Source of the DNA: Blasia pusilla | Taxonomy: Eukaryota | Assembly (NCBI GenBank): GCA_050084515.1 | Contig: CM114271.1 | Coordinates: 11,470,001-11,534,000 of the forward strand | Direction of reading: 5' to 3' | DNA: 64,000 nucleotides | In this document: positions 17,523 to 63,532 of the stretch, piece after piece | How positions within the stretch are numbered: position 1 is the first letter of the stretch | Layout of the letters: each line of letters begins with the position of its first letter | Position numbers and translations under genes: made by a program | Notes under the pieces: generated by a model | The model's database searches: none | Told to the model about the DNA's origin: nothing | The model's input: the letters and a program-made list of their open reading frames with translations, nothing else

Positions 17523-17669
17523 CGTTTAGTTAGACCCATCTAACTTCCCTTCACCCAGCGGAGGAGGGCGATCACGAACTGAAGAAGAAGTAGCCATCTT
17601 TCAAGATTTTGTGCAAACATACTAGATCGCCAGATACAAAATACTGGAAAACCTATTGCACTGATATCA

Positions 17670-22405: not shown

Positions 22406-25400
22406 TCACTCGTCATCGTCCGAGAGCTCTTGCAAAATCACTTTCGGCCTTGCCCTCCCAATTTTGGGAATCGTTGGAAGTGACGATGGAGTCACTACCA
22501 AGGGTGGCTCTAGAACCGGAGCTCTCGGCTTCGGTGGAGAGTTGTACGCCCCAACGAGCCTTTCGTATTCTGCCTTTGCCTCCTTGCAAAGGTCAAACAG
22601 TTCCTGCCTTCCCTCGAGGCAAAGAATGTTCCTGTCACTCTGCCAGGCGCCTCTGATACTCGCCCCTGAAAGGCCCACTAACCCCGGGATACTCGCCCCT
22701 GAAAGGCCCACTAACGGGATGGAGTGGTCCATCTGTAAATCAGCACGTTGGAAACAATGTCAGAAACTAAAGAAGTCGCCTTGAGAACATTTTCAATAAC
22801 TGACTTTGGATCAACCTATCGGAGTCCGACGGGTTGTTTTGTCCCGGACCAACCCGTTGGAACCCGATGGGTTGCAGTTGCTTTTGGGTTTTCCCAGTTG
22901 ATTTTGGTTTTTGGATGCAACCCGTCGAAAGGCGACGGGTTGCTGGCCTAGAGCAGCCCATGCTCGCTTGAGAGCAACCCGTCGCTATCAGACGGGTTGC
23001 ATCCAAAAACCAAAATCAACTGGGAAAACCCAAAAGCAACTCCAACCCGTCGGGTTCCGACGGGTTGCAGGTACACCACGGTTTTCCCTGTGTATGTGGG
23101 AAAGATGCAACCCGTCGGAAATCGACGGGTTGCTCTCAGCCGAGCATGGGCTGCTCTAAGCCAGCAACCCGTCGCCTTCCGACGGGTTGCTCACGGACAA
23201 AAAAAACCCAGATTGACTCTCATTCTACACATCATTATAAGATAATTGAAATTATTGTATAGGAATTGAGCCTTATCCGAATCTGACTCGTCGCGGATCG
23301 GAGTGGGTACTCGTTTTTTATGATCCATGATTGTGCCGTCCTCCACTTTAGCGACCTCTTGACGCACTGGAGGTTGAAGAGCTCGTCCTCGCTCCCTCCA
23401 GTCAACACCAAGAAGCAGCCCCTGTCACTCAGATAGGCGTCTGCAAAGGAGAACAAAAGTGCAATCTGGTCATAAGTGAGCGGCACATTCCACTCAGGTA
23501 CCTCCTCCGACGGATTCTCGCCCCAAAGTCGCAACCCCGAGGGCAGATCGGCGATCAAGAGATCCACCGCAACCTCTTCGACCACTCCATTCACCGTCCA
23601 GGCAGCATGCCCGTTTCGTTGGAGCTTCCGTCCCAGCGTTGTCAATTTTTCGATGGCTCGTGTCGACGCTTGAGAAGTGAAGCTCTTCAGCTCATCCAGT
23701 AAAGGAGTGAACTGAAGGAGGACGCTTGTCCAGGTCGTTGTTTGTCTGTGTCTTCCCAAGGATGATGGGCTGTATTCTCCTTAGGACAACCCGAGCATCT
23801 CTCGCTTCCGCTTCTCCCTAGCCTGGGGATGGCTTGTCGGGGTTTCTATGACCTCGGATTCTGGTGGCGTTTTTTTCGCTAAGGACCTGGTCCGACCCTC
23901 TCTCCCCGCTCGTCCGGACGATTCCGCCTCAAGCCTTGAATCTTCAGCCTCTCTTTGGGAAGACTCGGCCTCTGAATTTTTCCCTCCCCTCGCCTTGCCT
24001 TTGAGACCCGCTGTGGATTTGTCTTTGGCTGTCCGGACCTTGGAAGCCAACTCAGTTGTCTTGTGGGCTTGCTCTTCTGCATCTCCTCCGAAGAAGTCTT
24101 CAGGCTGGACGAAATTGGGGATGTCGTCTTGTCCTGAGGCCACTGCATCATGAAGTACTCGCAAGTCCTTATCCGTGATGTCTTCAAGGTCATTGAAGTC
24201 GAGCCAAATGGGGCAATTCTCCACCTCCCTATCGGACATGTGCTGCCCCATCTCCACGTCGTACATGGAGAATGTCTCTGCATCCGGCGGCGAAGCCCAC
24301 AATTTCAAGGCTACCGGTAATTTTCCCCACGTACCTACGTTCTTACACTGGATGAGGTTCCTGAAGACCATCCGTTGGGCAGCTTTTAGTCGAACAGAAT
24401 CGGCCGTCTGCTCCTATAGATCTCGCTTCTTCTTCGCTTGATCCCGTTTGTTCCCCTCTACTTCTTCATCAAGCTCTATCTGAGGGAGGACGCAAACCTT
24501 GAACATGGTCTTGAATCCTGGGTTTTTGGTTGGCTTGTCCCGGATGTCGTCGAGCCAAACCTCGTAATCTCCAGAACTTTCAAGGTTTGCTTCCGGCGGA
24601 ATGGGATCTAATCTTCTGAGCTCCGCTTGCAGACCGTCAAGCACGGACTTCCCGATTACTTGCAACGCGTCCCAGAACGACCATTCGCGTAGCCAATGCG
24701 AGATCACTGGATCGGACACACCTGGAGGATGGTGTGCCGCCCTCTTCTGGGCCTCTGAGCCCTCGAGACTGATTTTCATCAGTCGTATCCTCCTGAACTC
24801 GCTTATCCCGGACAATGCAAACCGATCCATGCGGATCTTCATCCCTCTTCCGCTGGCGCTTGATAATCGCCTTCAGCTCCTTGTAGAACTTCGGACCAAG
24901 TTCGGGGTTGAGAATGCTGATGTATCGCTGCATCTTGCTCGCCGTGTATTTCATTGCAGCAGATACTGCAGCTTGGATGAATTTGGCGCGCTCAAACGCA
25001 GATACCTTCTACCTCCGCTCTAGCTCCAGTGCAGCGCTTTTCTTCGCGGCCTGTATCTTCGACCAGCAAAGGATGGCTACGGCTGCATCTTGAGAAATAA
25101 ACTTGTTTGCCCAAGTTTTCTTCTTAATCTGAGCACCCTTTGCAAGCATCTGATTGACGAGGGCATCGCCCAAGAACCCCCTGTACTCTCCCAGGTGCGT
25201 CGTAAGCACCTTCCTCACCCGATCGCAGTCCTGGATCCATTGGTGGGTGACATTCCCCTCCGATACAATCCTGCACATCCAAACTCAACCCGTCAGGAAA
25301 TAACATGGGTTCCTGCAACCCGTCGGACTCTGACGGGTCGTCACAGCTCAAGGTCGGATTCTAGCAACGAGCTAAATGATGCAACCCATCGGAGTCCGAC

Positions 25401-27278
25401 GGATTGCATTCAGATTTGCTAATGCCTGGTAAGCAAACCTTCGGAGTCCGACGGGTTGCTCGATAGCCCGCCTTGTGAGGATGTTTTTTGAAGAATGCAA
25501 CTCGTCGGACTCTGACGAGTTGTTCGAGTGATTGCAGGTTTAGAAGGTTTTTTCCCCAAAGCAACCCGTTGGAGTCCGACGGGTTGCTTGCCTCGAAGCT
25601 GTTTTTTCCCCAAAGCAACCCGTCGGAGTCCGACAGGTTGCTTGCCTCGAAGCTGTTTTTTCCCCATATCAACTCGTCGGAGTCCGACAGGTTGATTTCG
25701 GCCAAAAACAGTTTCGAGGCAAGCAACCCGTCGGACTCCGACGGGTTGCTTTGGGGGAAAAACCTTCTAAACCTGCAATCACTCAAACAACTCGTCAGAG
25801 TCCGACGAGTTGCATTCTTCAAAAACATCCTCACAAGGCGGCTTTGTCGAGCAACCCGTCGGACTCCGGACGGTTTGCTTTGGGCCAAAAACTAGTTAAA
25901 TCTATGTTCAATCAAACAAGTCGCCGGAGTCCGGCGAGTTGCAATCTTAAAAAACATCCAAAAGCGTGCGATCCGAACAACCCGTCGAGTCCGGCGAGTT
26001 GCTTTCGGCAAAAACAAACCTAACCCATTCATCAATCGAGCAACTCGCCGGAGTCCGACGAGTTGCGAAAAAGTGTTAAAGATACTCACGTGTTCATGGC
26101 ATGCATTGCCATCTCCACCGTCGCCATGTGATGAGGGTATGGGTGAAGGACCACCGCCTTCACGCAGAAATGTGCCTCAATGAGTTGGGCGGCTCCTCCA
26201 AACTTGGTCCACGCCATGAACCTGTGATTTCCATCCCGGATGAAGAAATGCGATTCCTCATCCGGCTGAATTCCGTGCCCTCAACTTGCCTTCTGAAGTC
26301 TTGGTCTCGCATCCTCCAGAATGTGTCGAGCTTTTCCAAGTCCTCCTCGGTAACCAGAGCTTGGGTTCCATGCTCGTCGTAAGGCTGAACATAGAAGGGA
26401 GGAAAGCTGTCGACGTAGGATGTTGTCGCCGCCGATTGTTTTAGCTTCGCGATGTCCTCGTCGGACTGAATTTCGCGGACGTATTCCATTGTCCACAATC
26501 GGCATAGTGGAATCCTCGGGGCATTGTGGCCCTCCATGAGTGCCATCTGCTTTACCACCTGTCAGAAACCGGGACAAGAGGAATAAGCTACACTGAAATC
26601 CCAATGAATTGCAATTCACATAATTAAAAAAACCCAGAACCTCTCTTACCCGCTCGAAAATGGGGTCGGTTTCTTGACCAGCTAACTTGTCTGAGACAGA
26701 GGCTGGAAAATCGACTAGGAACTCGTCGATCAGATAGAGGTCGATGTCCTCCGCTGGGCTTGGAGTCGAGAATGACCGCTCTCCGGCTTCTTCGGCCATG
26801 TCCACCATCTCCACGCTGGCGGTCCTCATGACCTCGTCGTCATCGATTTCAACTTCTATTGTTTCCACTATGTTGATTGTGTCCCCGACTTCGTGGGGGA
26901 CATTTACCGCATCTCAACACTTGCGGTTGGACGGGCTGGGCTATCGTCAATGGCTATCGCTTTTTCCCTCCTCGCTTTAGCCAATTCTTCCCTCCTCACC
27001 GACGCGTCCAGACGCTTCTTTTCTCTCTTTTCGTCGGCAATCCTTTTCTTCAAGGCCTGCAACGTCTCGGCCTCTGCGTTCTGTTTATCTAGCGCCTCTT
27101 GAACACGTCTCGCAAGAAGCACTTGGTTGTGCATCTCCGCTTCCCTTTCCCGCTCCTCGATTTCCTGCTGCCTAATTTCATTCGCCGAACGAGGCCCAGG
27201 AGAAGCTGACGTAGGAGTCCTAATGGACTTCGGAGTGAAGCTCCCAGACTTGTTGGCTTGTGATTTTTTCCTCGTCAT
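22406..27278 (-). pseudogene. E2 gene B: ParB/Srx-like domain plus beta-class amino-methyltransferase-like domain; three exons (27278-26090, 25270-~23275, 22732-22406)
   Basis: DGNHRFMAW at ~26211-26240; VDLLIADLPSG and YLSDRGCFLVL (ORF 23235-23759); LVGLSGASIRGAWQSDRNILCLE (22406-22732). Palindrome-filled introns sit at the same positions in other copies; the intron 2 donor is mutated here but is GT in E3. Confidence 0.65.
25310..26070. repeat. Array of 27-bp palindromes (GCAACCCGTCGGAnTCCGACGGGTTGC) in gene B intron 1
   Basis: Perfect copy at 25723-25749 and many variants. Similar clusters at ~9260-9960, 10950-11880, 19080-19440, 22810-23190, 27650-28010, 31670-31930, 48980-49380, 50370-50950 and 53770-54150. 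Confidence 0.95.
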
Positions 27279-27552
27279 TTTTGCCGGAAATGCCTCCACC
27301 TATGTCCACGAAGAATTCCTTGATCAATCGCCTAGTTGATGTCGAGATGGGAGCTCGAATCGCCTTGATGGTTAGCTCGAATCGTCCCGTTATCGCTCGG
27401 TCGAACCGTCTCGCTCTCGTTCCCTCCTATCGACTCGCGATGTGTCGCCGTGTGAAATGCCCTTCAGATCGATCGATCGGCCGCTGCTGGAGAGTGAGGA
27501 GTGAGGAATGAAGATCGCGAAATGAGAAACCAGAAATGAGCGATTTCTGCCC

Positions 27553-39252: not shown

Positions 39253-42156
39253 TAGATGTCGCTCATGCTCCTTAACCGTGGCGCTAAAGACTACGATGTC
39301 ATCAATATAACACCTAGCAAAATCCATACCAACCAAGATCCTATCCATGACCCTCTGAAACTCCGCCGGTGCGTTCTTTAACCAAAATGGTAAGAACCGC
39401 CACTGGTACAAACAATCCTTCCCGTGAGGATCGATGCCCTAAAATATCGTCTTCTGCCTGTCCTCCAATCTGATAGGCAACTGATGGTATCCGACTTGCA
39501 AATCCAATGAATTGAAGAACTTTGCGTGACCAATTGCATCAAATATCTCCTCAAGGGTGGGCATGGCATACCTACCGGGCTTTGTCTGCCGATTGATAGG
39601 TCGGTAATCCCCACATATCCGCCTATCCGTCTAGTTGCCATGCACATCCTTTGTCGCGACCCTCATGACCAAACGAGTGCCAAAGCAGAACATCGGAACA
39701 TTAGCGGGCTCACGCTAAGATGGTTTGCGCGTTGGAGTGGTCTCGAAGAAGAGACAAGAGATGAGACACAAGCGAGGCTTCACATTTCAGATGTTATGGT
39801 CATGACCGAGAAACCTTGACCAAACGCAGAATGAGACTTGAAAGAAGTCGAGTCTAGAAAGTGGGTTGCCAAAAGGAAGAATCCGGATTTGGAACGCCAC
39901 TAGCGTTTTAGAGTTTCCGACTGTATTTATAACCATAACTTTTAGCACCAAGATGAGTTTTGATCAAAAAAGGGTGCATTGGAAGGCTTATGGAAATCTG
40001 GTTCAAACGCACTAAAGATCTCTACAAACGCATAAGCAGCGGCTGAGAAAAAACCCGGAAACGATTGTAAGTGGAGCCGGATTGAGGGCCACAATGAAGG
40101 GCCCGACCCTCCTTTTCCAAAGGGGGCATATTGGAGAACCCCAGAAGTACTAGTAAGGGGGAAGGTCTCTGAGAGTGCTTGGAACCCGAACCCCACTTTG
40201 GGCGCCTAGGGCGGCTCAAGGGCATGGAACGGAACGCGAGTTTGGGAGTTGGGTTGGAAAACCTGCACCAAGTCTATTGAGGCGATTTTAGACATCCCTC
40301 TTGGATTTCACCCCGCGACTTTACTTGGGTCTCGTTTTGGAACTCACACGAGGTCCGTTGAACAGTTGGGATCGCTAGGCGCGCAAGTGCCGTTTCAATT
40401 CCCTGGACTAACCAGGAAGTCTGTTCCAAGTCTTGAAGGACTTGCCATGTTTTGGAAACTATGAACTAAGGAAGGTTGAGCTTGATGAGACGCCGAGTTG
40501 AGAACTCGGTGGGTTGGAACGCTCGTTGGCCCAGACCCGACTAACGAGAGTGCGTGTTTGGGTGTAGATCGGCGATGAGATCGTGTCCTACTGAACATAC
40601 GCTTCCGCAACAATAAAGATTGACGTTCAAGGAGAGTAGGGGCGCGACATCCTTCTTGGCGGGTATGACACTGGCAGATGCATACTTCCCATGCGACATC
40701 TCAACTACTCCTGCTCTGACCAAGTCCTGGCTCCTACTCTAAATCAGAGCCCTCTCCATATCACTGTATATGTAGGATCATCGGAAGATTGGCGTATCAC
40801 TTGACAACTCAATGCAGATCCTCGGTCCCTTCAGTGTACCCAAATCCTCCATGCTAAATGGAAAGAAGCTCCTATAACTCCTGAGGAACTGATGTATCCG
40901 GCGCCGCTCTCCTCCTGTCAACTTAGGGCCCATATCTGGCTCCCAAGTCTCCATCGTGACTACGGTAGGACTCTCTGGCGCGGGTATCGATGATTGCTAT
41001 GGTGCAACCCCGTCTCGGACAACAACACTCGCCTGCTCTCTTATAGCCAACTACAAACTCTGATCTCCTCCACTTGCAGTGCCCAGAACCACGCTCAATG
41101 CTGTGGCTATCATCTCCTGGCGTACCTGCAAAACATCCCAAGAAGTCCAAGGGTGTCTCTCTCGATCTCCCCTGGTGTGTAGATCTCCTCAAGTCTCTCC
41201 CCCCAACCACTACCTCCACCATCTCGATAGGCATGGAGCTCACCAACGCAACCGTTGTAATCTATCGCGATCTCATACGACACTGCTCAACCACTCCCAA
41301 GCTGAGGATCCATGTCAAGCAGTTCAGGTCCATCGCCTGACCCAAGACATGGCGTCGTGATGCCTCTGACACTGACGGTACCGCCGCCACTCCTGTGGGA
41401 AATCCCATCGCTCGCTCTCTCTCGTCGGCCTTGAGATCCACCAACCGCTGAACCTCGTTATCCCAAACCAAGCCAAGACCGGCCTCCTTGTATGCATAGG
41501 AAGCGGGAAAACTCATAAACATGGGCAAGGCTGCCTGCGGCCTGCCTACCCTATTGACCATAGTCAACGGTGGTCGATCATCGTGCCTCACTGCCTATGA
41601 TCGACGACTTGGATCCATAATGGAATCCACGAACAAATGGGAGGGGCGCTCCACTCTCGCATATGCCCTCCGTAACACCGCATGGGGCACCAAGTTGGTC
41701 CACCAGAGACATAGGAAATGGGATCTAAACCTACACTTGCTGCATCCAAGAACATTGCTGGGCCGATTTAGGCACACACTTGATGAGCACTCGTCACCAT
41801 CCGTGACCTGGAGTCTCCTAAGATCGGCCCATTCTCCAGAATATAGGCTGGAGAATGAGAGTGGTGCTCCTGCAACTGCCGTAAGACCCTCAACATCTCC
41901 CAAAACAACCAAGACCGAGTGTCAGCCAACCCGCTGCCTCGTCCAACACTAGATTGGCCCTGACATGGCCAACCGACAATGACCAAATCAATGGTCCCTA
42001 CCTACTCTAAGTCCTACGCCCCCAGCAATGGAATATCCCTCGGTAGGGAACTCTGGTACCCCTGTTCTGCGGACGCAGACAATAAGTCGGGAAAACATAG
42101 GCGTAACTACGCCACATGTTGTAGTGAGACGCGCCTTGCAACATCACTCTCCACAT
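39253..42156 (-). pseudogene. Gypsy remnant: DNMT3-like C5 methyltransferase followed by the RT N-terminal half
   Basis: IDLVIVGWPCQG, YILENG, LWWTNL, motif IX ERERAMGFP and motif X RRHVLGQAMD (41262-42150). RT YASASVIPAKKD, ICGDYR, LKNAPAEFQR and CYIDDIVVFS..EHERHL. Confidence 0.85.
39652..40649 (+). mobile_element. Solo LTR of the chromovirus family
   Basis: TGTCGCGAC..GCGCGACA with TSD TCCTT (39647-51 and 40650-54). Homologous to 43163-43873. Confidence 0.92.
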
Positions 42157-43873
42157 ACACGTTGAGGCTGGCGGACGAGTTCAAGATTCACCCGACCTTT
42201 CATGTGTCATTGTTGAAGAAATATCTTCAAGATAATGGACGTTTCGCGCGGAGAAAGGTGGTGAGACCGCACCCGGTCATCATAAATGAAGAGCCGGAGT
42301 TTGAGGTGGGGACCATCTTACGTTCGAGGCGTCGAGCCAACAAGTATGAATACTTGGTAAAATGGAAGGGCTACCATGTGAAGGAGGCGACTTGGATTGC
42401 GGAGGTGGATTTGGAACACGCGCAAGAGTTGTTGCGAGACTTCAAGCAAACACAAGCGAAGCACATACGTTAGTACGAGGAGAAGCTAGAGACATGACTT
42501 GTAACCAGTGGAATCTTGGGCTGAAGGCCGTTGTAACTAGAATATGCTAGTGTTGCAATAAAGGAGTGTATGAATTTGGAGATTCGATGCCAGAGTGATT
42601 GCAATTTGTATGTGGTAGTGCATGGCTATGAGTCGTTCATCATAGGCTTAGGATGTACGTCAAGAGGACAGACAAGGAGTATTTGAGGTGAGAGCTCGTA
42701 TGTGGATAAGCACCTTGAACAGGACCTTGTGTTGGATTACACTCGGGCTCGCCCTAGCGTCGGCGGGGCAGATGATGTCTGTCTTGGGGCTTGGGGTGAT
42801 CTTACTTGTGGCCACATAAGTAAACTTAGTGACGCGCCTAAGTCGAATACGAGAGCGACCCAATAGTATTATGATTTGTAGACAAGGTAAACAAGTGTGA
42901 TGTTTACAGGAATGAGTCAGAAAAGTCTAAGGTTGCACACTTAGTTAGCTTATTTGATAGGTTAGTTCTTTGGAACTTGTCCAGGCTTATCAAAGAGGAA
43001 AGGCTAATAATTCTAAGTGGTGCAAAGCGACAACTATAGACTAAGAGGAATTGCGGGTTAGCCACCAGAACGCAATTCAATGTCAAGGGGTAGGCTGCCC
43101 AAGAGAGTTGACATAACAAAGGTTTGCATTGATGAGGGCATCAACCTCTAAAGAGGCATGAGTGTCGCGACCCTCATGACCAAACGAGTGCCAAGCGAAA
43201 CATCGGAACATTAGCGGGCTCACGCTAAGATGGTTTGCTCGTTGGAGTAGTCTCGAAGAGAAGACAAGAGACGAGATGCGAGCGAGGTTTGCGTTTCAAA
43301 TGTTGTGGTTGCGACCGAGAAACCTGGACCAAATGCGGAATGAGACTTGAAAGAAGTCGAGTCTAGAAAGTGGGTTGCCAAAAGGAAGAATCCGGATTTG
43401 GAACGCTACTAGCGTTTGAGAGTTTCCGACTGTATTTTTAACCATAACTTTTAGCGCCAAGATGCGTTTGGATTAAATAAGAGTGCGTTGGAAAGCTTGT
43501 AGAAAGCGGGTTCAAACGCATTAAAGATCTCTAAAAACGCTTCAGCAACGGCTGAGAAACAACCCGGAAACGACTGTAAGTGGAGTCGGGTTGAGGGCCA
43601 CAATGAAGGGCCCGACCCTCCTTTCCAAAGGGGGGGGGGGTTATTGGAGAACCCCAGAAGTACTAGTAAGGGGGAAGGTCTTTGAGAGTACTTGGAACCT
43701 GAACCCCACTTTGGGCGCCGCGGGGCGGCTCAAGGGCATGGAACGCTGGTTGGCCCAGACCCGACTAACGAGAGTGCGTGTTTGGGTGCAGATCGGCGAT
43801 GAGATCGTGACCTACTGAACGCACGCTTCCGCAACACTAAATATTGACATTCGAGGAGAGTAGGGGCGCGACA
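42157..43873 (+). mobile_element. Chromovirus (Gypsy) 3' end: integrase tail with chromodomain, PPT and 3' LTR (43163-43873)
   Basis: IHPTFHVSLLKKY; EFEVGTIL..EYLVKWKGY..ATW. The LTR carries a ~285-bp deletion relative to the solo copy. Confidence 0.88.
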
Positions 43874-44067
43874 GAACGTGATGCACCACTAGATCCAAGA
43901 ATGCGCAAGGGTGTAGAAGGTGCTTATAATGCACCTTGCACAATCTAGGGGATTTCTAGGAGACCAATTGGTGGACAAGATGCTCGCAAAAGGAGCACAG
44001 ATAAAGAAGAAGACTTGGGCAAACACGTACATTTCCCAAGATGGTGTAGTGACAATTCTTGGCTAGT

Positions 44068-46263
44068 TGTAGTGCCCACATTTTTGAAATTTTGATAAGG
44101 AAGTCAATTTTTGTACAGAATTGTAATGAAGTCTTCATTGAGTGAAGACTAAAGACTCAAGAGTGGAAGTAAAGACGTATGCTTTACAGAAATTGTGTGG
44201 AAACATGGAATGACTCAGCTCTGTACAAAGGACAAGAGATAGTAAGAAATTGAGGATTGTAGCATAGGAATGAGCCTTGTGTAAGAGTAAGAAAGGAGTT
44301 GGAAAGAAGTAAGAGTAAGAGGCGCAAGTACTTCGCAGGGAAGACTGTAAAAGACTTCTTCTCTGTAGTAGAGGATCCAAGGGAGTCTTCGTGCGAAGAT
44401 TGTGAACAAAGAATGAAGAACCAAGACCAAAGAGCGAAGACTAAGAAATTCAAGAAGCAGGGGGAAGAAGACGAGGAAATCAAAGAGTCTTCAGAAAGCA
44501 AAAAGGTGTATGAAGAATAGGAATAGAAAAAGAAAGAATGTTTTGAGGAAAGTGGATTGAAAGAAAGTTGCAAGGAGGACTCTTCGTGGCGGCAGAAGGA
44601 TAAGAGTCTTCGCGAAGATAGGACTACGAAGACTGCGAAGACTGTAAATAATGAATCGTCGCAGGGGTTTCGGAAGGCAAAAATGAATAGGCACATCGGT
44701 TTAAAAGGAAGCGGAAGGGAATCGACAGAGCAACCAACCAACTTAAAGGAAGTGAAGGGTTGGAGAATCTGAACGAAGGGGTTAACAGGAACCAAGGGGT
44801 TAGCAGCTAGAAAATTGATATACAAAAGGCTCAGCTATCGATACACTCAGAATTTGAGGATTTCTCACAAGATTACAAGATATCTCTAGTTATCCTCACT
44901 TCTCTACTATAAATAATCCTTGGTTAATGTTTTAGATTCTCAGAGAATTGTACCTTTTCACCACTCCCTACTGTGGCTGTTAACCCCAAGGAGCCACAAA
45001 TTTTAAGAAACTATTTGAAGAATAGAGCATAAGAACAAGGGGTCATTCCCTTGTGTCTTGAGTTTCCAGTACTTTTGGTGGATTATGTGAAGAGGACTTT
45101 GGGGAATGATCCAAGCCGAAGAGTCTTGTACCCTTGGAAGCTTGCAAAACGTTCTAATTCTTTCCACTCTTTGATGCAGTAGAAGTGTCTTCTCTCATTC
45201 TTTCTGATGTGCGGAGTTGAATGCAAATCTTATTGGGTTGCGATAGGGATGAGAGTTGAGTCCTTGATTTCAGAATTCCCGAGGATAATCACGAAGAGCG
45301 TAGGAAAGTTGTTAGACAGTGAGGGGGGCTGGTATTCTAGCAGGAGAGAGGAAGAGAGGAGAGTCTCTATTAAAAAAAAGGCACAAAAGGGAAAAAAAAC
45401 TGAAACTCTCTTCAAAAAATATGAAGATTATGGATAATAAGTGAGCAATTTTTTTTGAAGAGAGGAAACTTAGTGCAACCTATCGGAATCCGATGGGTTG
45501 CAATTTTTTGGTTTAGGAAAAAAATTCAGTTTTTTGGGTTTTTTCAACATTTGCAACACGTCGCACTTCGACGGGTTGCTTTCTAGGCATCATGGCAGCC
45601 TGTCGAACTCCGACTAGTTGCAAATGTTAAAAAAACCCAAAAAAATTGAAAATTTTTCCTTAACCATTAAAAAGAAAACCAAAAAAAATTGCAACCCGTG
45701 GGATTTCGACGGGTTGAAAAGGTATATATATATTTTAAATTTAAAAAAAATTTCACCACCAATTTTTTTGGAATTTTTTTTCCTTTTCAACTTGTCAAAA
45801 CTTTCCTCTCTCCAACATGTTGGAAACTCTCTTCAAACCAAAAGAGCCCTAGGGGTTGCCAGTATCTTCCTCTCTCCTCTCTCCACTCTTCCTCTCCTCC
45901 TCTCCTCTTACCGCTCCTTGACAGTGAATAACCTACCGTGACACATTCAGTTCTGAAAGTAGGGTGAGTCGAAACCTTCTTGAGGTCTCTTTGAGGTCTT
46001 CGTTGGAACTTTCTTATCCAAGATTCGCAAGAGTCTTTATGTGCACTTGAGAAGATTCTTTTCCAAGAGGGAAGAAAATCCTTTTGTTCTTTTGTACTAG
46101 AGAAGACTTAGTCATTGAAATTAGTGAAGTGCCTAGTAAAGAAGGAGTTATTCTTGATATTTCTTATAAAACATCTCTTTACTCATGAAACATTGGTCTC
46201 TTAGGAATGAACTTAATACTTTGTGATTAAAAGAGTACCTTTTTCCTTGAGTTGTACATTAGA
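44068..46263 (+). mobile_element. Solo LTR (same broad family) containing a MITE-like insert
   Basis: TSD CTAGT (44063-67 and 46264-68); TATA-like CTATAAATA at ~44907. Confidence 0.8.
45323..45919 (+). mobile_element. Non-autonomous ~600-bp derivative of the Mutator-like family
   Basis: Both family termini, TSD GACAGTGA (45315-22 and 45920-27), four 27-bp palindromes and no coding sequence. Confidence 0.88.
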
Positions 46264-47665
46264 CTAGTCTAAAATCCACGTAGCTAAGAGAAGTGTGCAA
46301 CTTGAGCTAGAGCGTAGGGAGAAGATTATAGTGGCAGAGCAATTGAAATTCACCAGGATGCAATGGTGACAACAAAAAATACACAACCAGCAAGATGCAG
46401 AGTTACATCGATGTGTTGAACCCCGAGCTTGGCCCAAAACTTTACAAGGAGTTAAAGGTGATAATCAAAGGCCAACGAAAGAGGGATGAAGATCCCCATG
46501 GACATATACGAAAGAAGTGTCTCTCGATTGCATGCACAAGTTTTCATTTTCGGGGCTTTCAAAATTCAAGAGAATCAAACTAATAAAAATGAGTCTTGAG
46601 GGGACGGAGGCAAAGAAGAAGGCGGTACACCACCCGCCGGGTGGTGTACCGCCTGAGTTGCATTTAGTATGAATACAGGTAGTACTGGAGCAAGTACTCG
46701 GCCGCCTGCAGTTTGTGGGCTACTATTCCAAATGGTGATGGATTCTCCATGTATGACACAGATATGGCTCAGAAGATGATAGACTGGGAGGTCCTCAATT
46801 GTTCAATCTGGTTGGACTACAATGACCTATGGGAGATTAGCAATCGGACGCTGAGATCCTTCCATGATGTAGTTGTTGTGGGCAAGGAGGAGATCTCCAA
46901 CTTCTTGAAGGTTGAGGAGTACTTTGAGGGTGATGCGGACGAGCAGGCCGTGGAGACCGTTGATCTGGTGTCCAAGGTGGTCACAGCCAAGGACTAGTCG
47001 ACTTTGGGTCTCAAGGGGAAGGCAAAGGGGTCTAGGCAGTTTGAGGTTGGATCCTTGAGACAAGAAGGACACGCAAGAGATGCCCAAAAACATACGTCTG
47101 TTGATTCATAAGTTATCGAGACCTTGACAAGTAGGCAAATAATTCACGAAAAGCGAAAATATGAAACGTCAAGTTCCTCGGAGTTAGGAAGCAAAGGTAT
47201 CAAATACTCTCCGTCATCCTTGGGCAAGCCAAGGGACGCCATGAGGAGGAGAAAAATCCTCCTACATCAGACCTTGCTCTTGGATGAACTTGAAATTCTT
47301 GAGTCAAGAGTCCACGGCTGCCCTGGAGAAGCTGACAGTCTTGGGACGAAAGCTTCTTCAAAACGGCCACTCGCCATGGAGTGTGAATAGGGTAGTTAAG
47401 GATGCTATGGTGGATCTCCTTATTGCACACCTACCATCTGGATTCAAATTGTGGGATGATAACCTACGTGACACTGTCCCAGACTGGAACATGACTTTGA
47501 CTTACGACCATATTGCGTTGCTCTTCTCCTTCACCAACGTGTATATGAGTGACAAGGGATGTTTCCTTGTTTCGACTGGAGGAAGCAAAGAAGTGCGTTA
47601 GGAGATCACTTAAGTGGTAGACGGCGTAGTCTTGGGTAGTCAAGAATGACTACCCCCTGAGATCT

Positions 47666-48937
47666 TGTGATACCTGAAATTTTGCAAATTTTGAGGATAT
47701 ACACATTTTTGTATGAAAAAGAGTATAGAAGTCTTCAAGAATGAAGACTGAAGACTATATGAAGTAAATCTTGTATATAAAGGGAGTCTTCAATAGTATT
47801 TATGTGTAATGGAAGAATGAGGAGTATTGGAATTGATTATGAAGCTCCTAGGATAAGGCAGAGAGATGGAAAATCAAGGATTTGCCTTAGAGGAAAGGGA
47901 AATGAGTTAACAAAGTCTGAAGATCAAGAGCGAAGCTCGGCGAAAACAACAAAGCACAATAAAGAACATGTTAAAAAAGTACTTCGCTCTTCATTGAAGC
48001 TCCAAGATGAAGTATAAATGAAGAATCTAGAACTTTGCACATGAACGAAGACCGAAGCACTTTGTCTGACAACGAAGAGGAAGAGGTCCCCACTTTGCAT
48101 TGAAGAGAAGACTATCTACGATTTCAAGTGACACACCGTTAGAGTAGTTAGGCTTAGAAGAGGCGTGACTTTTCAAAGCAGATAGAAAGGTAGAAAATTT
48201 ACAACCAACGGATTCCTAGGGATCATAGGAAAAGTTAAGAGAACCGTAGATTAAAGTAGTTAAAAGATCCTAAGAGATGTCTACTCTAAAGAAGCGCTTC
48301 ATATCTTTGTTACTGACGTTGTTTAAGAGACAATTGAATGATTATCAAAGAAGTCTTTAGCATCATTTGGTTGCAACGTCCTTATGATGTAGGAATGATC
48401 CAAGCCAGAGAGTAGTACCCTCTTGCGCTTGTAAACACTTTACAGCTTTTCTGTTCTTGATGGAATAGGACAAACCTCATTTCTTCATTCTGATGTTTGG
48501 TGCATATGTTTGAGAAGTCTTATTGGGTCTACAAAGTGAAAAATAATTGGGAGAGCCGCTTGCACTAGAAGAATAATCAATTGCGAGATGTAGGAAATCT
48601 GTTTGACAGAGAATAACCTACTGAGACGGATTCAGTTTTGAGAGTAGGAGAAGCCATCTAGCGATTGAGATCTCTGTGAGGTTCTTGTGTGTAAGGAAGC
48701 ATCTGCCAAAGAGTTTGTTCTACACCACTCAAGAGAACAGAAGAAAGGAAATCTTGGTACTTGTGAGAAAGAGAATGATCTGATGAATGTTTGAATCTGT
48801 TTGTATAAACATAATTATCATCTTTACATAAACAACACACCTTAAAGCTCTCTTTTTGGATAATAGTGACCTTCTTGGGGATCAAATTTCAGAAATACTC
48901 CCAAAACAATTACTTTATATTATCCTTGTACATTACA
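47666..48937 (+). mobile_element. Solo LTR
   Basis: TGTGATACC..CATTACA with TSD GATCT (47661-65 and 48938-42). Removing it restores YPLRSPTNQLR in gene B. Confidence 0.92.
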
Positions 48938-51665
48938 GATCTCCAACAAATCAACTCCGGGTAAGTTAGAAAAAAACATTTGCAACTCGTCGGAATCCGA
49001 TGGGTTGCGAATATGGGTTTTTTTATCATTGTAAGTGCTACCCGTTGGATTCTAACGGGTTGCACGTATGTTAAGTCTTTTATGTCGTTCTGCGCAACTC
49101 GTCAAATTCGGACGGGTTGTAGATTTGTTATGTGTTTTTTGTGGCTTCTGTGCAACCTCTCTTATTCCGACAGGTTGCAAATTTGTAATGTTTTTTTTGT
49201 GGCTTCTGCATAACCCGTCGGATTTCAACAGTTTGCGCAAAAATTTGGCAAAAATCCTTGCTCAATTCTGAGCTACCCCTAGGAATAAAAATCATCTTTT
49301 TTTTCTAGATATTTGCTCGCTTTCTTGTATATGCTGCAATCTTTCCCTTGCAACTTGTCGAAATTTGTTGGGTTGTGGAAGAGAAATCATTCATTCTCTT
49401 GATACTCCTTGATGCTGACCAACATTATTGCCACTTTCATTTGTGCAGATCGAGTATTTGTGTGTATACTATTTTGTGCGGCTAGAGTATAGATTCCAGG
49501 TTTTCAAGATCAACGATCAAGTTGATCCCTCCAATGGTTACACTTTGAGCAACTTGAACAATTTTCCCCTAGGAATTTTTGTGATGGACAGTGTGACATC
49601 GCTAAGAGGAAGGAAAAAGTCCCCGGCACTAATGCAAACCTTGATGGAGCTCTGCTCGTGCCTGGGTGACTTGGTGATGAATTTGGCTGGGTTATCTAGG
49701 GCCAATGTTAGAGCTGCATGGCATAGCAGACGAAACATTCTCTGCCTTGAGTTGAGGAGGGAGTTGCTGATCCTATTCCATGAGGCCAAGGGGGATTATG
49801 AGAGGCAGTTGGGAGTATACAAGTCACCTCCTCGGAAAAATACATAAGATCCATTGGTAGTGACACCATCGTCACTACTTGTGATTCCCAAAATCGAGCG
49901 TTCAAAGCCAGTTGTGATTTTGGAGGAGCTTTTTTTATGATGACGAGTGAGTGCACTGATTTGTTGGTTTAAACACGTTTTGGAGTGGGACAGTAGTGGT
50001 CTCAAGCGGACTAACACATATTGATTCTGGATGGGTGTCACTTTGTAGAGCATACAAGATAACCTGCTGGGATAGGGGTTGAGACATATCTTGAGTGTCA
50101 CAGGACCGATATGGAGCACCTAGGGGGCAAGACTCTCAAGTTCCTCTTCTTTCTTAATCCCCATCTACAATTGTCAAGATTGTACCCATTGGATTTCTTA
50201 TCATTTCTTCATATGGATGTCAAGCTCATGAAATTTTGTTGTTTTCCTGTCTCGCTACCTCTCCAATACCAACAACTTGCAATCCGTCTCTTTATTGTTC
50301 TAATTCTTTCTTTTTTCTTACCTTTGGTGAGTCATGTTTGTTTTTGGTTTTTCTTCATCTTGTGTCTTGCAACCAGTCGGGTTTCGACGGGTTGCATGTC
50401 TGAATAAAACCTGTGTGTTTCCTAACATTTCTTCAAATGGATATTTTGTTTTTCTTACATCATGTCTTGCAACCTATCGGATTCCAACAGGTTGCATATA
50501 TGAGTGGAACGTGTTTTCTTCCTAGCATATCTTCATATGGATGTTTCATTTTTCTCACATCATGTCTTGCAATCTGTCAGATTCTGACGGATAACATGTC
50601 TGAAAGGAACCTAAGAGCAACTTTCCTTTCTCTGCCTTCACATGTATGTTCCTGTTTCCTTCAATTTTTTAGTGGTCATGTATTTCCTCCCTTTCTTTTC
50701 CTCATTTAGATTTCGATGGGTTGTAGGTCTAGATGGAACATGTGTGTTTCTTATCATTTCCTCATATTTATTTCTAGTTTTTCAATAGAATTTTACACTG
50801 GTCATGTCTAACAACATGTCTAATTCCGACACATTGCATGTCAGGATGATTACCTTCTATTCATTTCATTCTCTTTCTTCACCTCTTTTGTCACTAGCAT
50901 TTCTTCACTTCTTACATCTTGCAACGTGTCGGATTCCGACACGTTGCAAGATGTTGGCTAGCTCATTACTTCCCTTTTCCTCTCAATCCTTCCTCTTAGG
51001 CATTCTTGTTGGTTTCCTTCACTTTTGACATGTGTGTTTAAACATAGTTGCCAAATGCCCATCAGCCTCCTAAAGACTCCATGTACCTATTCCAGAGCCA
51101 AGTCTTCTAACTCTTTCGTGGCCTCCGAGTCTTTTGAGTCATTGTTGGCAATATTGCAATCCTACACTTTCTACCAACTTTACCAAATCATCTCTTTGTC
51201 AATTCCTTTATCTCCAAGACTTTTATCATTGGTTGTGGAATTCTGACAACATGTTGGGAATGAGGATGAGAGTCTTGGGCTAGACCCCATAGTCATAGTT
51301 TTATTTTGAACGGCTTTGATTAGTTTTGTAATGATACAATCCCATCTTATGGATTTGCGTATATAAGATATCCTCCTTCCCGATAACACTGGCCTACACA
51401 AAGAGTGATTTAAGCATGTCTGAAGTGGTCTCCATTGTTCCATCTTCACAACCTAGTGCAAAAAAATATGTTAGTTTTTGCCCCAACCTGGTCCACTTAT
51501 TACTCTCTTCAAAATATTTCTTGCATTTGAAGTAGAGGAAAAAATTTCAAAATAGTGGAAATTTTTGAAGAGAGGTTAAAGATTTTGTCTTTTTAGAAGC
51601 GAGACTCTCCTCTCTTCCTCTCTTCCTCTCCTCTCTTACTCTCTCTTGTCTAAATACCAGCCCCC

Positions 51666-52120
51666 TTGCGATTACTACCTGATGGCATCCTTTCCACCAA
51701 GGTTCCACGTTATGAACCATGGTTAAATGAGTTAAAGGTATGGGTAATGAGGTACTTGGCCTTATCTTGCATCGAGCTTAGTAAGAAAAATGCCATCAAG
51801 ATGACAGTTGTTCAAAATCATATCATTGAAGCATACATCTACTTTGGTGCACTATCTCTCTCCCTTGATTATTTTAGAAGGAAAATGTCCAAATTGTTGA
51901 AGATAGAGCGGTCCAATTTCAAGAAGAATTGGACAACTCATGGGGCTCATTATGGAGTCCCATCCCACCCTGACACCAATGAAGAGTTATGGGCCCGATT
52001 GGTAGATTATTGGCTTTTTTAGGAGGGTAAGACAAAAGCTGAAAAGATGGTGCAAGCGAGGTCCAAGGTCCAAATCCTAAATTTTTCCGCCCATGGAGGT
52101 CTAGGTGGGCTTGATGTAAG
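51666..52120 (+). pseudogene. Fragment resembling a CACTA/En-Spm accessory (Ptta/Transposase_24-like) protein
   Basis: PDTNEELWARLVDYWLF*EGKTKAEKMVQARSK resembles the W..LV.YW...E.K......R.K pattern; judged by eye only. Confidence 0.4.
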
Positions 52121-53134
52121 TTTAGTTTGCATCCTTTTGATGTAGCTAAAATATTTCTAGAGACCACTTCCTCCCAATATTTCAATAAAATTTGAAAGTG
52201 AGTTTATGCGTGAAAACTAATACTTGATGAGTAGTTATTGTTTGAGTAGGTTTGGGCCCAAAAGCTCCATGGCCACCGGGACAAAAGGAGTGGAGCTTGA
52301 ATCCAAGTCTTAACATCATGCTTTCACTAATTTGTGGTTGCCAGTAAGTCTTGCTGAAATTGTTTCTTCGCATAGTTGAGAGCACTCACATATTTAGTTT
52401 CCATGTTGTTATTGTCATGCTTTCTTGCTCTTAGTACTTAATTTCAGGTGTTATTGTGTGGAGAGTGTGGAAAGTAGAATGACCACTCAATTGGAGGAAG
52501 TGGAGAGAAAATGGAGTGCAGACTTGGATGTTGTGAAGTCCTAGATGGAGCAGCAGAATAAGACTCTAGGTGTGCTTATGGAGATGGTCTCCAAGCTAGC
52601 AGGGCAGGATCCTCCATTGCCATCTTCGGCAATTGTTCCATCTAATGCCACAAAATCAATTCCTTCTTCCAATGTTGCCCCTCCAATAGGTACGTTGTGC
52701 AGATCCCTATGCATTTTGGTTTCATTCCTCAAAACCTGAGAGGTAACTTTATCCCATTGTGCTTGGAGATAGTCACCTCAGTATGGCCCACATTGGAAGC
52801 ACCTTTCATGTCCTCACGTGGCTTAGCTTGTTGGAGGAGCCTATTAGGGAGCCTTGTTTTTCCTTCTTCTGCTCGGATGTTAACATATACATCATGTCTA
52901 GCGACAAAGTCTTATGGGCAATATAATATCACTTCTTCTACTAGTGGTTTTATATGTGATGGATTTATTGATATTTTTCTGAAATTCCTTTAATTTTGGG
53001 TCCTTTGGACTTCATATGAGTACCCTTTCAGACGGATTTGGGACCTCATATGGGGATGGCACCACAAATCCAAATCAGCAATCTAGAATATCAATGAAAG
53101 GGAAAAATCTGCCAAGGAATGAAGAAGGTATCAA

Positions 53135-56120
53135 CTTTGATATTTGCTACAGAGTGCTGAATGGATGGTTGACAATGGGTGGTCACGTTTATGACCATAT
53201 GGAGAAGGGACTCAAAACTATATTTGTCTATGAAGTAAAAGCAGAAGACGTTGGAAGTTTGAAGCTGTGCTAGTTACTCTTATTGGAGGTGGTGAAGGAA
53301 AACAAAAGGCCACCTTCAGAAATTTATGGGTTCATGGCGGACAATGCACAACCTATGTGGATTGCTATCAGGGTAGTTTTTTGGGTTGAGGAGGTTCAAC
53401 CGGAGAGAGAATGGTTGGATGCTTTCAATTGGAAATAGTCTATGACCCGATACACCAAATCTTGCATCAAGGAGAATAAGAGGACGGAGCATGTCACTCT
53501 ACTCCAACGTTGCAAGGACAGCAAAACCTTGAAACAGGGCATGGAATGCCAAGAAGAAATTCATGGGTGGTGGAGGAAACATGCGATTGAGGGGAAGTAC
53601 AAAGAGTTATGCTCTTGGCTGAGTTGGTGGACTGTACGAATGAGACAATGGGGAAACTTCATGCGGGAGGTGAGTTCACTAATTTGTCTTGCTGAAAATT
53701 GTTTGAAGAGTTGCAGCTAAAGTTGAGAAGCATGGGCTACTATAGGGATTTCAAACCGAAGAAATCAAGCAACTTGTCGAATGCGACAGGTTGCTTGAGT
53801 GTTCCACCCATCGCTTACCGACGGGTTGCCTGAGTGTGCAACCACTCGGAAAACGATGGGTTGCAAGTCGCATGGCCAAATTTACTTGCAACCCGTCGGA
53901 ATCGGACCAGTTGATGGGTTGTCTGAGAGTGCAACCAGTCAGAAAAGGACGGGTTGACGGGTTGCCTGAGTGTGCAACTAGTTGGAAAAGGAAAGGTTGC
54001 AAGTCGCATGGCCAAATTTACTTGCAACCCGTCGGAATCGGACGGGTTGCACTAGGTGGTTCCTAGGTGTTGCAACACGTCAAGAATCGAGAGGTCCCAG
54101 AGTCGTTCATGGGATGCCTCTGCCTTGCAACCTGTCTGGTTTTGACAGGTATCTTATTTCTTTGACTTCTGAGCTATTTTCGTTCCCTTCTCACATTGGG
54201 GTCGTTGTAGGGATTGAACATTCATGAAAATGCCCTTTGCCCCAATACAAGTGGGGCAGAAAGTGTTCATTCCTCCTGGAGGTCGTCACAAGCATGCCAA
54301 AGAATTTCACTTATGGAGGCATGCCAACAAGACCAGGCAAGAGCAATGCTACAGTCTGCAGCATCCCATATCTTCCTCACCAAATCCATAACAAAAGGAA
54401 GGGGGCCTTCAATCTACGAACTCTATGTCAGGGCAGCTGTGAGATCTGGTGATGAGAAACTCTATGTGGAAGCCTTCAACCGGTGCGTAGCAGGAACTCC
54501 CCTCGAGCAAGATATACAAATTGTTGGGGATATTCGTGGGCGCGTTTCAAGACGTCCCATACAGATGGTGGTAGAGCAGTCGGAGTGAGACTCGTAGAGA
54601 CCATAGAAGTATCTTGACTTGAGGCAGATGAAGAGGCAACATCGAGGAAAAAATCCGGTGATTGATTTGGATGAGGAAATTACGCCGCCTAGGTATTCGA
54701 GGACCTTGGATTACTCCCAAATCTGTGATGGAGTAACTTCTCCAAAATTAGTGAATGTTTTATTTCAAAAGTCCTCCGTTGGTGGAAGTTTGCAACATCC
54801 GGTGGCTAGGGTGGTTCAACAATATGGGATTCCGGTCATGGAGGTGGATTGCAACCTGAAATGGTGACATATATCTCGGAGCAACCCTGGACGTGGATCC
54901 ACTTGCAAGGCAGGATCTGATGGCATTAGGAGAGCATGCGGCACTTTCCTAAATAAGAACTGTACAAGGATTGGACGACCACTTCTTGGGTTTTGGGGAC
55001 TCAAAACCTTCCATCGTTTCATGAGGACCGGACATCAATTGAAGTTCTTCTTCTGCCCAAATGAATCTTGCACTTTCCAAAAGTCTTATCCGGTTGCCAT
55101 TGGAGCTCCGGGGAATACCCCCACGATTTGGCCCATTGCCGCAGGTACGAATTGCACTCAAGACAAAGTGGACAATCTTACAAGTGTCAGTTTCAGACTT
55201 GTCAACGGAGGAAGTTCAGAGCATGTTTGCATTACACAGACCTTTGCATTTCGTATTCAATCCAAGATTGATGTCAACATGTACCGGAGAAGGTGGATGA
55301 TCTCAATCCACTATTTCTGTTTGAGTCTAGAATTGGGGCGAAGAGAAACATAATGTGTAGGCCAATGAGGGAGAGAGCAAAGCGAATTGCATAAGCTTGA
55401 GAGGAAAAAATGGAGATCATCGCCACAAAAGATGTCCATAGTGGCAATGGAATAGGAAGGATGTATTGGGTCAGGAACAACATTGTAAATGCAGGTCTCA
55501 CAGGGGTATATGTGCTGCACATCTGTTGCTTTCTCACATGTTCATGTGATGACTTTGTCCAAAGAGAGACAAGTGGAAAAAGATATTTCCCTTGTAAGCA
55601 TATGTACTATGAATTGCTTGTAGTTTTAAGAGAGTCGGAGGTAGGAGTAGGAATCCACCAACCAATTATGTCCCTCAAGGAAGTGCAAAATATTCTAAAC
55701 AAACCACTTTGAGGATGCAAAATGAGGTTTTAGATTGTCCTTTCATTTTTCCAGAACCTTCACTTTGAGCTTGAACTCTATTCAGCACAAGGCAAATGAT
55801 AGATTTTTTCCACACCTTGGATGGAAAAAGTGATTGGTTCCACACTTATGATTCCATTGATTTTTCAGTTTTCTAAATTTTGTGCAGATTGCAACTCGTC
55901 GCACTCACATGGGTTGCTAAAATGTGGAAGAGGAAAAAAAATATGTGGGAGTGCTTAAGAACTGAGAAGAAAAGTGCAAAAAAAATCACACAAAAAGTTT
56001 CCTCTCTTCAACCCAACGGAAACTCTCTTCAAATCATAAGAAACTCTCTTCAAAAAAGAAATCTCTTTGGGTTGAAGGTAGTTTCCTCTCTCCTCTCTTC
56101 CTCTCCTCTTACTGCACCTC
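53135..56120 (+). mobile_element. Mutator-like copy E4, 5'-truncated (transposase core to right terminus)
   Basis: FDICYR, FMADNA, GAESVH, SWIM (55410-55712) and terminus ..TCTTACTGCACCTC at 56120. Confidence 0.88.

Positions 56121-58564: not shown

Positions 58565-63532
<4,968 letters not shown>

Follow-up and report, generated by a model that had tools for sequence, protein, structure and literature searches.

A 64,000-nucleotide stretch of Blasia pusilla contig CM114271.1 (positions 11,470,001 to 11,534,000 of the forward strand; hereafter the window) contains two broken copies of a gene that ends in a domain resembling prokaryotic DNA methyltransferases (MTases). The first of them, copy 1, had been singled out by an earlier reading made from the letters alone (hereafter the sequence-only reading). 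With good confidence, we interpret the flagged stretch as the 3′ portion of a defunct repeated-element gene, the final domain of which derives from a beta-class amino-MTase of phage or bacterial origin. A DNA transposon residing in a liverwort-like plant genome is the probable carrier. The domain itself would most likely have been acquired from a phage or a bacterium, because the sequences closest to it are those of small MTases encoded by stand-alone genes of phages and plasmids; the MTases examined are 227-256 amino acids (aa) long. The surrounding DNA is eukaryotic and repeat-rich. It holds 105 open reading frames (ORFs) of at least 110 aa, and the 40 of these that were scanned with Pfam include copia, gypsy and LINE (long interspersed nuclear element) domains.

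Relatives of the gene and homology of its last domain

On the + strand, the flagged part of copy 1 covers the stop-to-stop ORFs 47245-47601 (118 aa) and 49419-49847 (142 aa). Tblastn with three copy-1 ORFs as queries located exactly one other copy in the window, on the - strand (copy 2), with matches at 24329-24021, 23681-23385 and 22699-22529 (52%, 64% and 56% aa identity; E 3e-34, 1e-40 and 7e-17, respectively). Outside the window, a HMMER search of 1.84 billion representatives with copy 2 as the query (one stop read as X) returned 5 matches, the best at E 6.3e-21; those with a name come from two liverworts, Riccia sorocarpa and R. fluitans, and are annotated as hypothetical proteins. One further search gave 7 proteins, and a profile search extended the family to 41 proteins, of which 11 are unnamed. 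The other 30 are from R. sorocarpa, where they are scattered across many chromosome-scale contigs; the family is multi-copy. A word-based search for longer homologues of exon 2 of copy 2 found none. The Riccia relatives are about 800-1250 aa long, and in intact ones the MTase-like domain makes up the final ~270 residues; both domain halves stand in a single protein in P0011 (1244 aa), P0015 (1089 aa) and P0013 (793 aa). In databases, family members are labelled “hypothetical”, “DNA methylase N-4/N-6 domain-containing” or “Trimethylguanosine synthase”, and 5 of the 41 carry a precomputed assignment to PF01555.

We asked whether the family carries a METHYLTRANSFERASE domain. By sequence comparison and modelling, the answer is yes from several independent lines. 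The Pfam family N6_N4_Mtase (PF01555) was the top or sole match in all four scanned Riccia proteins that hold the C-terminal region (E 4.8e-4, 7.8e-4, 0.14 and 0.29), and every match falls on profile positions 166-218 of 221. Family profiles were also compared with a Protein Data Bank (PDB) set of 177,635 sequences. With profile A1 (12 rows), the first match was the beta-class N6-adenine MTase M1.HpyAVI (E 1.8e-5, 27.4 bits), with M.RsrI next (E 0.3); with profile A3 (38 rows), M1.HpyAVI again came first (E 1.5e-3). The alignment of A1 with M1.HpyAVI is single and colinear and spans both halves of the domain. It pairs vDlLivDlPsg with VDAIITDPPYN, sDrGClli with NPNGCMVIF and, in the motif X-I-II block, rrkctgfvqtllen..GdividlaGlsga..RnilvlE with TQKSLALMEKII..NDIVLDPFMGSGTT..RNFIGIE. 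In this same block, hhalign matched A1 to two phage MTases (93% and 94.5% probability) and to one plasmid MTase (84%).

Comparisons of individual proteins point the same way. The N6_N4_Mtase of cyanophage ACG-2014f aligns by BLASTP over its full length with Riccia P0018 (E 3e-9, 244 columns), whose DLPSG lies over DLPYG. Tblastn with P0018 gave 44 phage records (best E 6e-4) and 60 plasmid records; among the matches listed, 10 of 10 in phages lie under annotated DNA MTase genes and 9 of 10 in plasmids under MTase genes. From the window itself, exon 3 of copy 1 scores 27.7 bits against the motif X-I-II region of the Streptococcus phage Javan597 N6_N4_Mtase, a value reached by 0 of 200 shuffles. 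The motif X-I-II block that the family shares with phage MTases shows 37% identity over ~65 residues. In the ESM Atlas, 28 of the 30 matches of this exon belong to the N6_N4_Mtase set (top score 0.94); for exon 2, the Atlas offers a lead only, with MTase families at ranks 9-18 (scores 0.85-0.86). We identify VDLLIADLPSG as the motif IV equivalent because of the A1-M1.HpyAVI colinearity, the P0018-cyanophage alignment and the fold model described below. The permuted order (motif IV, variable region, motif X/I) was confirmed by the M1.HpyAVI and cyanophage alignments and by the secondary structure of the model: beta4 with motif IV is followed by beta5 to beta7, a variable loop, the motif X helix, motif I and a beta2 strand ending in Glu.

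An AlphaFold2 model of P0018, built from the 38-row alignment, reached a mean predicted local distance difference test score (pLDDT) of 58, with residues 10-175 at 70-84. In this model, the strand ADCLYLD (residues 63-69) leads into the loop LPSG. Foldseek returned CcrM (1.5e-7), M1.HpyAVI, M.BceJIV, MboIIA, RsrI, type III Mod, the rotifer enzyme N4CMT, TTHA0409 and PvuII. VIA-align, which is independent of Foldseek, was run with the model against 48,161 chains. Beta-class amino DNA MTases fill its ranks 1-11 without exception (Z 14.1-11.3, alignments of 192-224 residues over model range ~1-280); ranks 12-20 belong to the MT-A70 family (Z 10.8-8.3), and the following row falls to 6.9. Bacterial-type DNA MTases thus fit better than MT-A70 proteins (Z 11.3-14.1 versus 8.3-10.8), and no Pfam match to MT-A70 was found in the Riccia proteins scanned. 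As modelled, P0018 has a seven-stranded SAM (S-adenosylmethionine) MTase fold nearest to beta-class enzymes, and its best structural matches are bacterial members of that class. The sequence-only reading had proposed that the C-terminus aligns with a beta-class N4C/N6A MTase, and had named profile and structure searches as its possible refutation. Those searches return an MTase fold for the family, through the Riccia P0018 model, and homology to the permuted N6A/N4C-type amino-MTases is upheld by the A1-PDB match, Pfam on the Riccia proteins, Foldseek, VIA-align and the cyanophage BLASTP.

The UniRef label “Trimethylguanosine synthase”, borne by 12 of the 41 family proteins, was considered and set aside as a probable naming artefact: the motif order is permuted and the fold matches the beta class. 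There was no Pfam match to this family in the Riccia proteins scanned, and no TGS1 chain among the best 50 VIA-align rows.

The closest comparison is with M1.HpyAVI/DpnA-type N6-adenine MTases and orphan phage and plasmid MTases, which have the same motif order and fold, provide the best PDB profile match and rank among the best fold matches. A short, poorly ordered region between beta7 and motif X is likewise common to the small stand-alone enzymes and the element family. Unlike these enzymes, family members have no aromatic residue in motif IV and stay under the Pfam cut-off; they are multi-copy, their genes contain introns, and the domain is the last part of a eukaryotic protein about 800-1250 aa long.

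Several observations weigh against the assignment. The sequence-only reading had suggested a check against Pfam N6_N4_Mtase, which came out divided: those window ORFs of the gene that were scanned gave zero Pfam matches at E<=10, whereas the Riccia homologues do match, at 20.6, 19.9, 12.5 and 11.5 bits, each under the gathering cut-off of 26.7 bits. Two window ORFs searched against the PDB with phmmer found no MTase, and the same search with Riccia P0013 gave nothing relevant. The N-terminal half is hardly recognisable from sequence alone. Window exon 2 does not score above chance against phage MTases (10 and 21 of 200 shuffles, respectively, score as high), exon 2 of copy 2 matches the cyanophage MTase by BLASTP only at E 0.032, at the right place, and profile A4, which covers the N-half only, yielded 3 unrelated matches and no MTase in the PDB at E<=10. 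Aligned by hhalign with the cyanophage MTase, A4 obtained 4% probability, though with motif IV over motif IV. As to the fold, the model is that of a Riccia homologue and not of the window's broken copies, and its pLDDT is below 50 over most of the C-terminal half. A first AlphaFold2 model, made from the 12-row alignment, had a mean pLDDT of 44; its Foldseek list, which included CcrM and M1.HpyAVI, was not relied on. Finally, the view that the carrier is probably a DNA transposon is drawn from copy number, decay and context only.

Taken at their strongest, these points would mean that the likeness is due to chance and that the two ORFs are unrelated non-coding sequence or belong to another fold. 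The silence of the window ORFs in Pfam and the PDB and the failure of the exon-2 half to beat its shuffles in pairwise tests are what such an explanation has in its favour. We regard it as extremely improbable: the profile-PDB search, Pfam on the homologues, PF01555 on 5 of 41 members, language-model features, tblastn and two fold searches all agree, and exon 3 beats 200 of 200 shuffles.

Active-site motifs and the missing aromatic residue

Motif residues were counted in the 38-row family alignment. Motif IV reads D-[LMV]-P-[ST]-G across the family, with D in 28/29, P in 28/29 and G in 26/29 rows. Position 2 is L in 17 rows, M in 6, V in 4 and Pro in none. Position 4 is S in 15, T in 8 and E in 4 (the Glu rows are all unnamed database proteins); an aromatic residue occurs in 0/29 rows. 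Within the window, copy 1 has HLPS and copy 2 DLPS, the His being found in copy 1 only as against Asp in 28/29 rows.

An aliphatic residue at position 2 is also seen in related enzymes. Motif IV is CDLPYG in the cyanophage ACG-2014f MTase (Pfam N6_N4_Mtase, 103 bits), ADIPYN in the Javan597 MTase (87 bits) and TDPPYL in a Rahnella plasmid MTase, so that two of the three nearest relatives examined have D-aliphatic-P-Y. HindIII-like restriction-modification MTases are described with DIPY as their catalytic motif IV (PMC12294265). Since DIPY and DLPY occur naturally in these HindIII-like enzymes and in the two phage MTases, Leu or Ile at position 2 is no defect. The context is nearly identical in ADIPYN of Javan597 and ADLPSG of copy 2: Asp-aliphatic-Pro ends beta4 in both groups, but the D-I/L-P-Y enzymes keep the Tyr where the family has Ser or Thr (Glu in four rows). 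Judged from the alignments, the family's one real departure in motif IV is Tyr to Ser/Thr. The degenerate xLPS motif put forward by the sequence-only reading therefore stands as regards the lost aromatic residue, whereas its Leu is a natural variant. That reading also held the motif IV change to be older than the decay of the copies, in agreement with its family-wide occurrence in Riccia and with the divergence of the window copies under purifying selection.

Motif I has a different history. In Riccia it reads G-D-I-V-I-D-F-A-G-G-W-G-A-T, with G in 23/26, W in 20/25 and G in 22/25 rows. Copy 1 has LAGLSRAN, in which both Gly are lost, and copy 2 has LVGLSGAS, in which the first is lost. LxGLS, regarded by the sequence-only reading as a second ancestral change, is specific to the window lineage; the Riccia proteins have F-A-G-G-W-G with G-x-G intact. 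On the aligned residues, the window lineage has eroded motif I beyond the state kept in Riccia.

The column at the end of beta2 is E in 22/28 rows and D in 2; both window copies have ILCLE here, which pairs with IGIE of M1.HpyAVI. In that enzyme, D29 and E216 are reported as essential for binding of SAM (AdoMet; PMC5173035), and they match the family's motif IV Asp and beta2 Glu. The predicted SAM-contacting positions (motif IV Asp, G-x-G and beta2 Glu) are accordingly shown by the family alignment to be strongly conserved in Riccia. The string D-M-P-P-F, present in some Riccia members (e.g. KLDMPPFD; P0014, P0015, P0020, P0027 and P0029), was considered as motif IV and rejected. It is misplaced, in the variable loop that separates beta7 from motif X and has low model confidence, and it is not conserved, other members having DLAPF or CTSF there.

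What intact members do is a separate matter. They would still bind SAM, and probably DNA. According to PMC7544214, the first residue of motif IV abstracts a proton and the fourth stacks on the target base. With the base-stacking Tyr lost, methyl transfer to a flipped base would be weak or absent, and the element would use the domain as a binding module for DNA or SAM, or as a sensor, somewhat like METTL14 or MTA9. Because that Tyr is missing, we tentatively favour a binding module with poor or no methyl transfer, at a confidence a little short of even. METTL14 (EPPL) and MTA9 (NALW) are described as proteins with a beta-class-like fold and an eroded motif IV that act as non-catalytic nucleic-acid-binding partners (PMC7544214). 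They heterodimerise with an active paralogue, whereas no second MTase gene was seen in the element.

Alternatively, intact members could be working N6-methyladenine (6mA) or N4-methylcytosine (4mC) MTases that mark element DNA, for example palindrome arrays, with another aromatic residue or a conserved P-x-W-N loop in place of the Tyr. Across paralogues with only ~50% overall identity, conservation within the domain is highest at the D, P and G of motif IV, at motif I G-x-G and at the Glu of beta2, and the proportion of nonsynonymous differences (pN) between the window copies lies far under that of synonymous ones (pS), as expected of a constrained active site. D-I/L-P-Y enzymes of the HindIII-like group are described as active (PMC12294265). 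In addition, the window holds 62 occurrences of the palindrome CAACCCGTCG-N5-CGACGGGTTG (<=3 mismatches), where 0 are expected, and they cluster in the non-coding parts of the element. All this has to be set against the lack of an aromatic residue at position 4 in every one of the 29 rows, when that residue is described as stacking on the flipped base in all amino-MTases (PMC7544214), and against the reported loss of activity of rotifer N4CMT upon the change of SPPY to APPA, which turns the catalytic Ser and the Tyr into Ala (PMC8885841). A working enzyme is therefore the unlikelier of the two, and we hold it with clear reserve.

Gene copies, decay and past selection

The N-terminal half of the MTase-like domain of copy 1, beta4 with motif IV and then beta5, is encoded by the 118-aa “exon 2” ORF at 47245..47601 (+), which shares 64% aa identity with copy 2 and can be aligned to the Riccia proteins. 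The position 47284 that had been proposed as the start is an internal ATG of this ORF. The motif IV equivalent VDLLIAHLPSG lies at 47410..47442 (+; HLPS at 47428-47439) and aligns with VDAIITDPPYN of M1.HpyAVI. The strand after motif IV (the “LKPGG” region), YMSDKGCFLVS, is found at 47542..47574 (+), and its D-x-G is almost invariant across the family. Exon 2 continues in another frame at 47591..47665 (+) as KCVRRSLKW*TA*SWVVKNDYPLRS, which is interrupted by two in-frame stops and was recognised by tblastx and frame translations; its counterpart in copy 2 is the intact LKWRTAQSWIIKNEYPLRS. An intron-like gap (47666..49499, +) separates the two halves, its boundaries, including the acceptor at 49499/49500, being inferred from the sequence. 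The gap measures ~1.8 kb in copy 1, enlarged by repeat fragments that match 38502-37476 and 30865-30058 and containing palindromes at 48983-49119, and ~650 bp in copy 2. “Exon 3” (49500..49847, +) encodes the C-terminal SAM-binding half with motifs X, I and II, and ends in a premature TAA at 49845-49847; a remnant of the original tail is left beyond it at 49851-49931. Within this exon, KSPALMQTLMELCSCLGDLVMNLAGLSRANVRAAWHSRRNILCLE (49617..49751, +) covers the motif X helix, the eroded motif I (LAGLSRAN, 49683-49706) and the beta2 strand, whose end with the Glu is ILCLE (49737-49751). Upstream, “exon 1” (46683..46997, +), the middle region of the gene, is in another frame than exon 2, has a stop at its end and shows no known domain in Pfam. 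Further upstream pieces span 43857..46654 (+): 43857-44060 has two in-frame stops and 46268-46654 has frame changes, and the ~2.2 kb between them is absent from copy 2.

In copy 2, the middle region and the N-half of the domain share one 392-codon frame (23238..24413, -) with a single in-frame TAA at 23783-23781. This frame includes VDLLIADLPSG (23567-23535, -) and YLSDRGCFLVL (23435-23403, -). Exon 3 (22409..22759, -) retains its complete acidic tail, ...SDDDE, and contains LVGLSGASIRGAWQSDRNILCLE (22681-22613, -). It is without the KSPALMQTLMEL... motif X helix that precedes motif I, and a 33-bp tandem duplication (22714-22649, -; LVGLSGASIPG / LVGLSGASIRG) falls precisely over the motif I equivalent. 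The peptides quoted in the sequence-only reading are thus all present, at 47410-47442, 47542-47574 and 49617-49751 (+) in copy 1 and within 23567-23403 and at 22681-22613 (-) in copy 2.

An ORF set described as “gene A” lies upstream of copy 2 (26163..27299, -) and encodes PRIPLCRL...; a second copy of it (8019-9237, +) reads PRIPLCRL...FIWDGNHRF. Tblastn of Riccia P0011 and P0015 against the window placed gene A, at 8803-9234 (+) and 26603-26250 (-), as the N-terminal part of the same protein. By homology, gene A and the MTase-like “gene B” are one gene in Riccia. A third, truncated gene copy at ~7600-10708 (10001-10708, +) ends before the MTase part.

The sequence-only reading had suggested a comparison with ParB-MTase fusions. 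If the gene descended from such a fusion, the W-(D/E)-G-N-H-R region would be a ParB/sulfiredoxin-like domain and the palindromes parS-like sites. The PRIPLxRL...W(D/E)GNHR region and the MTase-like domain do share one Riccia protein, palindrome arrays do accompany the gene, and the GNHR motif presumably resembles the GxxR/DGHHR box of ParB-like domains. Searches gave this ancestry no support. ParB_N (PF02195) was not matched at E<=10 in 10 Riccia proteins or in three window ORFs of the N-terminal region; profile A2 found 3 unrelated matches and no ParB in the PDB; and hhalign of A2 with one plasmid ParB_N protein (31.5 bits) gave 0.55% probability. Moreover, the closest of the phage and plasmid MTases examined are each encoded by a gene of their own, and ~600 residues lie between the N-terminal region and the MTase-like domain. 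We consider a ParB fusion improbable, and return to a domain most likely captured from a phage or bacterium.

Both window copies are pseudogenes without present function. Copy 1 carries the upstream stops and frame changes, a frame change between 46997 and 47245, the two stops in 47591-47665 and the premature TAA. In copy 2, the in-frame TAA at 23783-23781 is accompanied by more defects upstream and by the helix loss and the 33-bp duplication in the last exon. The differences between the two copies are mostly at silent sites: over five conserved blocks, pS is 0.69-0.83, which is saturated, and pN is 0.12-0.30 (pN/pS 0.234/0.743 in exon 2, 0.290/0.693 in exon 1 and 0.296/0.829 in exon 3). As pN is far below a saturated pS, the copies represent two old lineages of a gene that was maintained by selection and died later. 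This comparison shows that the two window lineages diverged under purifying selection.

Palindrome arrays, neighbouring elements and significance

Within the arrays, the palindromes are spaced by ~55-70 bp. They form clusters at 5213-7614, 9384-9951, 10956-11641, 19124-19343, 22812-23189, 25316-26065, 27650-27938, 31698-31933, 45476-45716, 48983-49119 and 53804-54049. The MTase-like gene has such clusters in its intron and spacers, and others fall within or next to repeated SWIM-bearing ORFs. The palindromes could be binding sites of an element protein. They are the obvious candidate target of the MTase-like domain, their link to it being a spatial one only.

The SWIM-bearing ORFs form a repeated multi-exon set with three + strand copies (18444-20577, 31014-33800 and 53130-56600) at ~75-85% aa identity by tblastx. 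Their Pfam matches are weak only (SWIM, E 0.0072; DDE_Tnp_ISL3, E 0.11), and they have no PDB match. These ORFs may belong to the same element system, because they share the palindrome arrays, and may encode its Mutator-like transposase. A block of ~200 bp recurs in both orientations at 51461-51666, 20590-20764, 4747-4955, 6538-6737 and 4248-4415. It stands ~1.5 kb downstream of the MTase-like gene in both copies, directly abuts the 3′ end of a SWIM-bearing ORF at 20590, and may be a long terminal inverted repeat. Other elements in the window are represented by the tail of a chromodomain-bearing gypsy-type integrase shortly upstream of copy 1 (41964-42470, +), a copia element with gag, integrase and reverse transcriptase (13777-17525, -) and a LINE with endonuclease and reverse transcriptase (59896-62805, +).

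A literature search on transposon-borne, ParB-linked, liverwort and horizontally transferred MTases found no published description of the element family, while supplementary clade lists may hold members. In the R. sorocarpa genome paper, the words “methyltransferase”, “methylase” and “Mutator” have 0 occurrences each.

Prokaryote-type amino-MTases are rare in eukaryotes, and the two proven 4mC cases considered, in bdelloid rotifers and Marchantia sperm, are host genes. MpDN4MT1, with the motif TSPPY, is reported as the liverwort 4mC MTase (bioRxiv 10.1101/2021.02.12.428880). Like the element family, MpDN4MT1a/b of Marchantia and N4CMT of bdelloid rotifers (fold match at Z 11.9) are prokaryotic-type beta-class domains in eukaryotes. 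They differ in that they are host genes, single or duplicated, with the canonical motif (T)SPPY and, as reported, proven 4mC activity (10.1101/2021.02.12.428880, PMC8885841), whereas the family is multi-copy and its motif is D-L-P-S/T-G. The closest precedent for a transposon-borne MTase-like domain is that described in DIRS1, where it is thought to be inactive through catalytic and substrate-binding substitutions (PMC4738411). The DIRS1 domain is M.EcoKI/TaqI-like, probably PCIF1-derived and carried by a retroelement according to that account; here, a beta-class domain occurs in an apparent DNA-transposon setting.

A more far-reaching proposal is that a captured phage-type MTase changed its motif from D-L-P-Y to D-L-P-S/T-G with the SAM pocket kept, and acts on the element's own palindrome arrays. 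It might do so by methylation of altered chemistry, or as a SAM-sensing, base-flipping clamp against host silencing through 5-methylcytosine (5mC) or 4mC. We rate this as a long shot. A still bolder extension is that such elements might have been the vehicles by which beta-class amino-MTases, for example the ancestors of MpDN4MT1, entered liverwort genomes.

Overall, a multi-copy element gene of liverworts, plants that themselves employ 4mC, carries a beta-class MTase domain; the alteration of the domain's active-site loop is old, and the altered loop has stayed conserved. Should intact members bind SAM or DNA, they would add a second kind to the transposon-borne MTase-like modules, next to that of DIRS1. 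The element family could then be a transposon tool against host methylation, and D-L-P-Y versus D-L-P-S provides a natural experiment on what motif IV requires.

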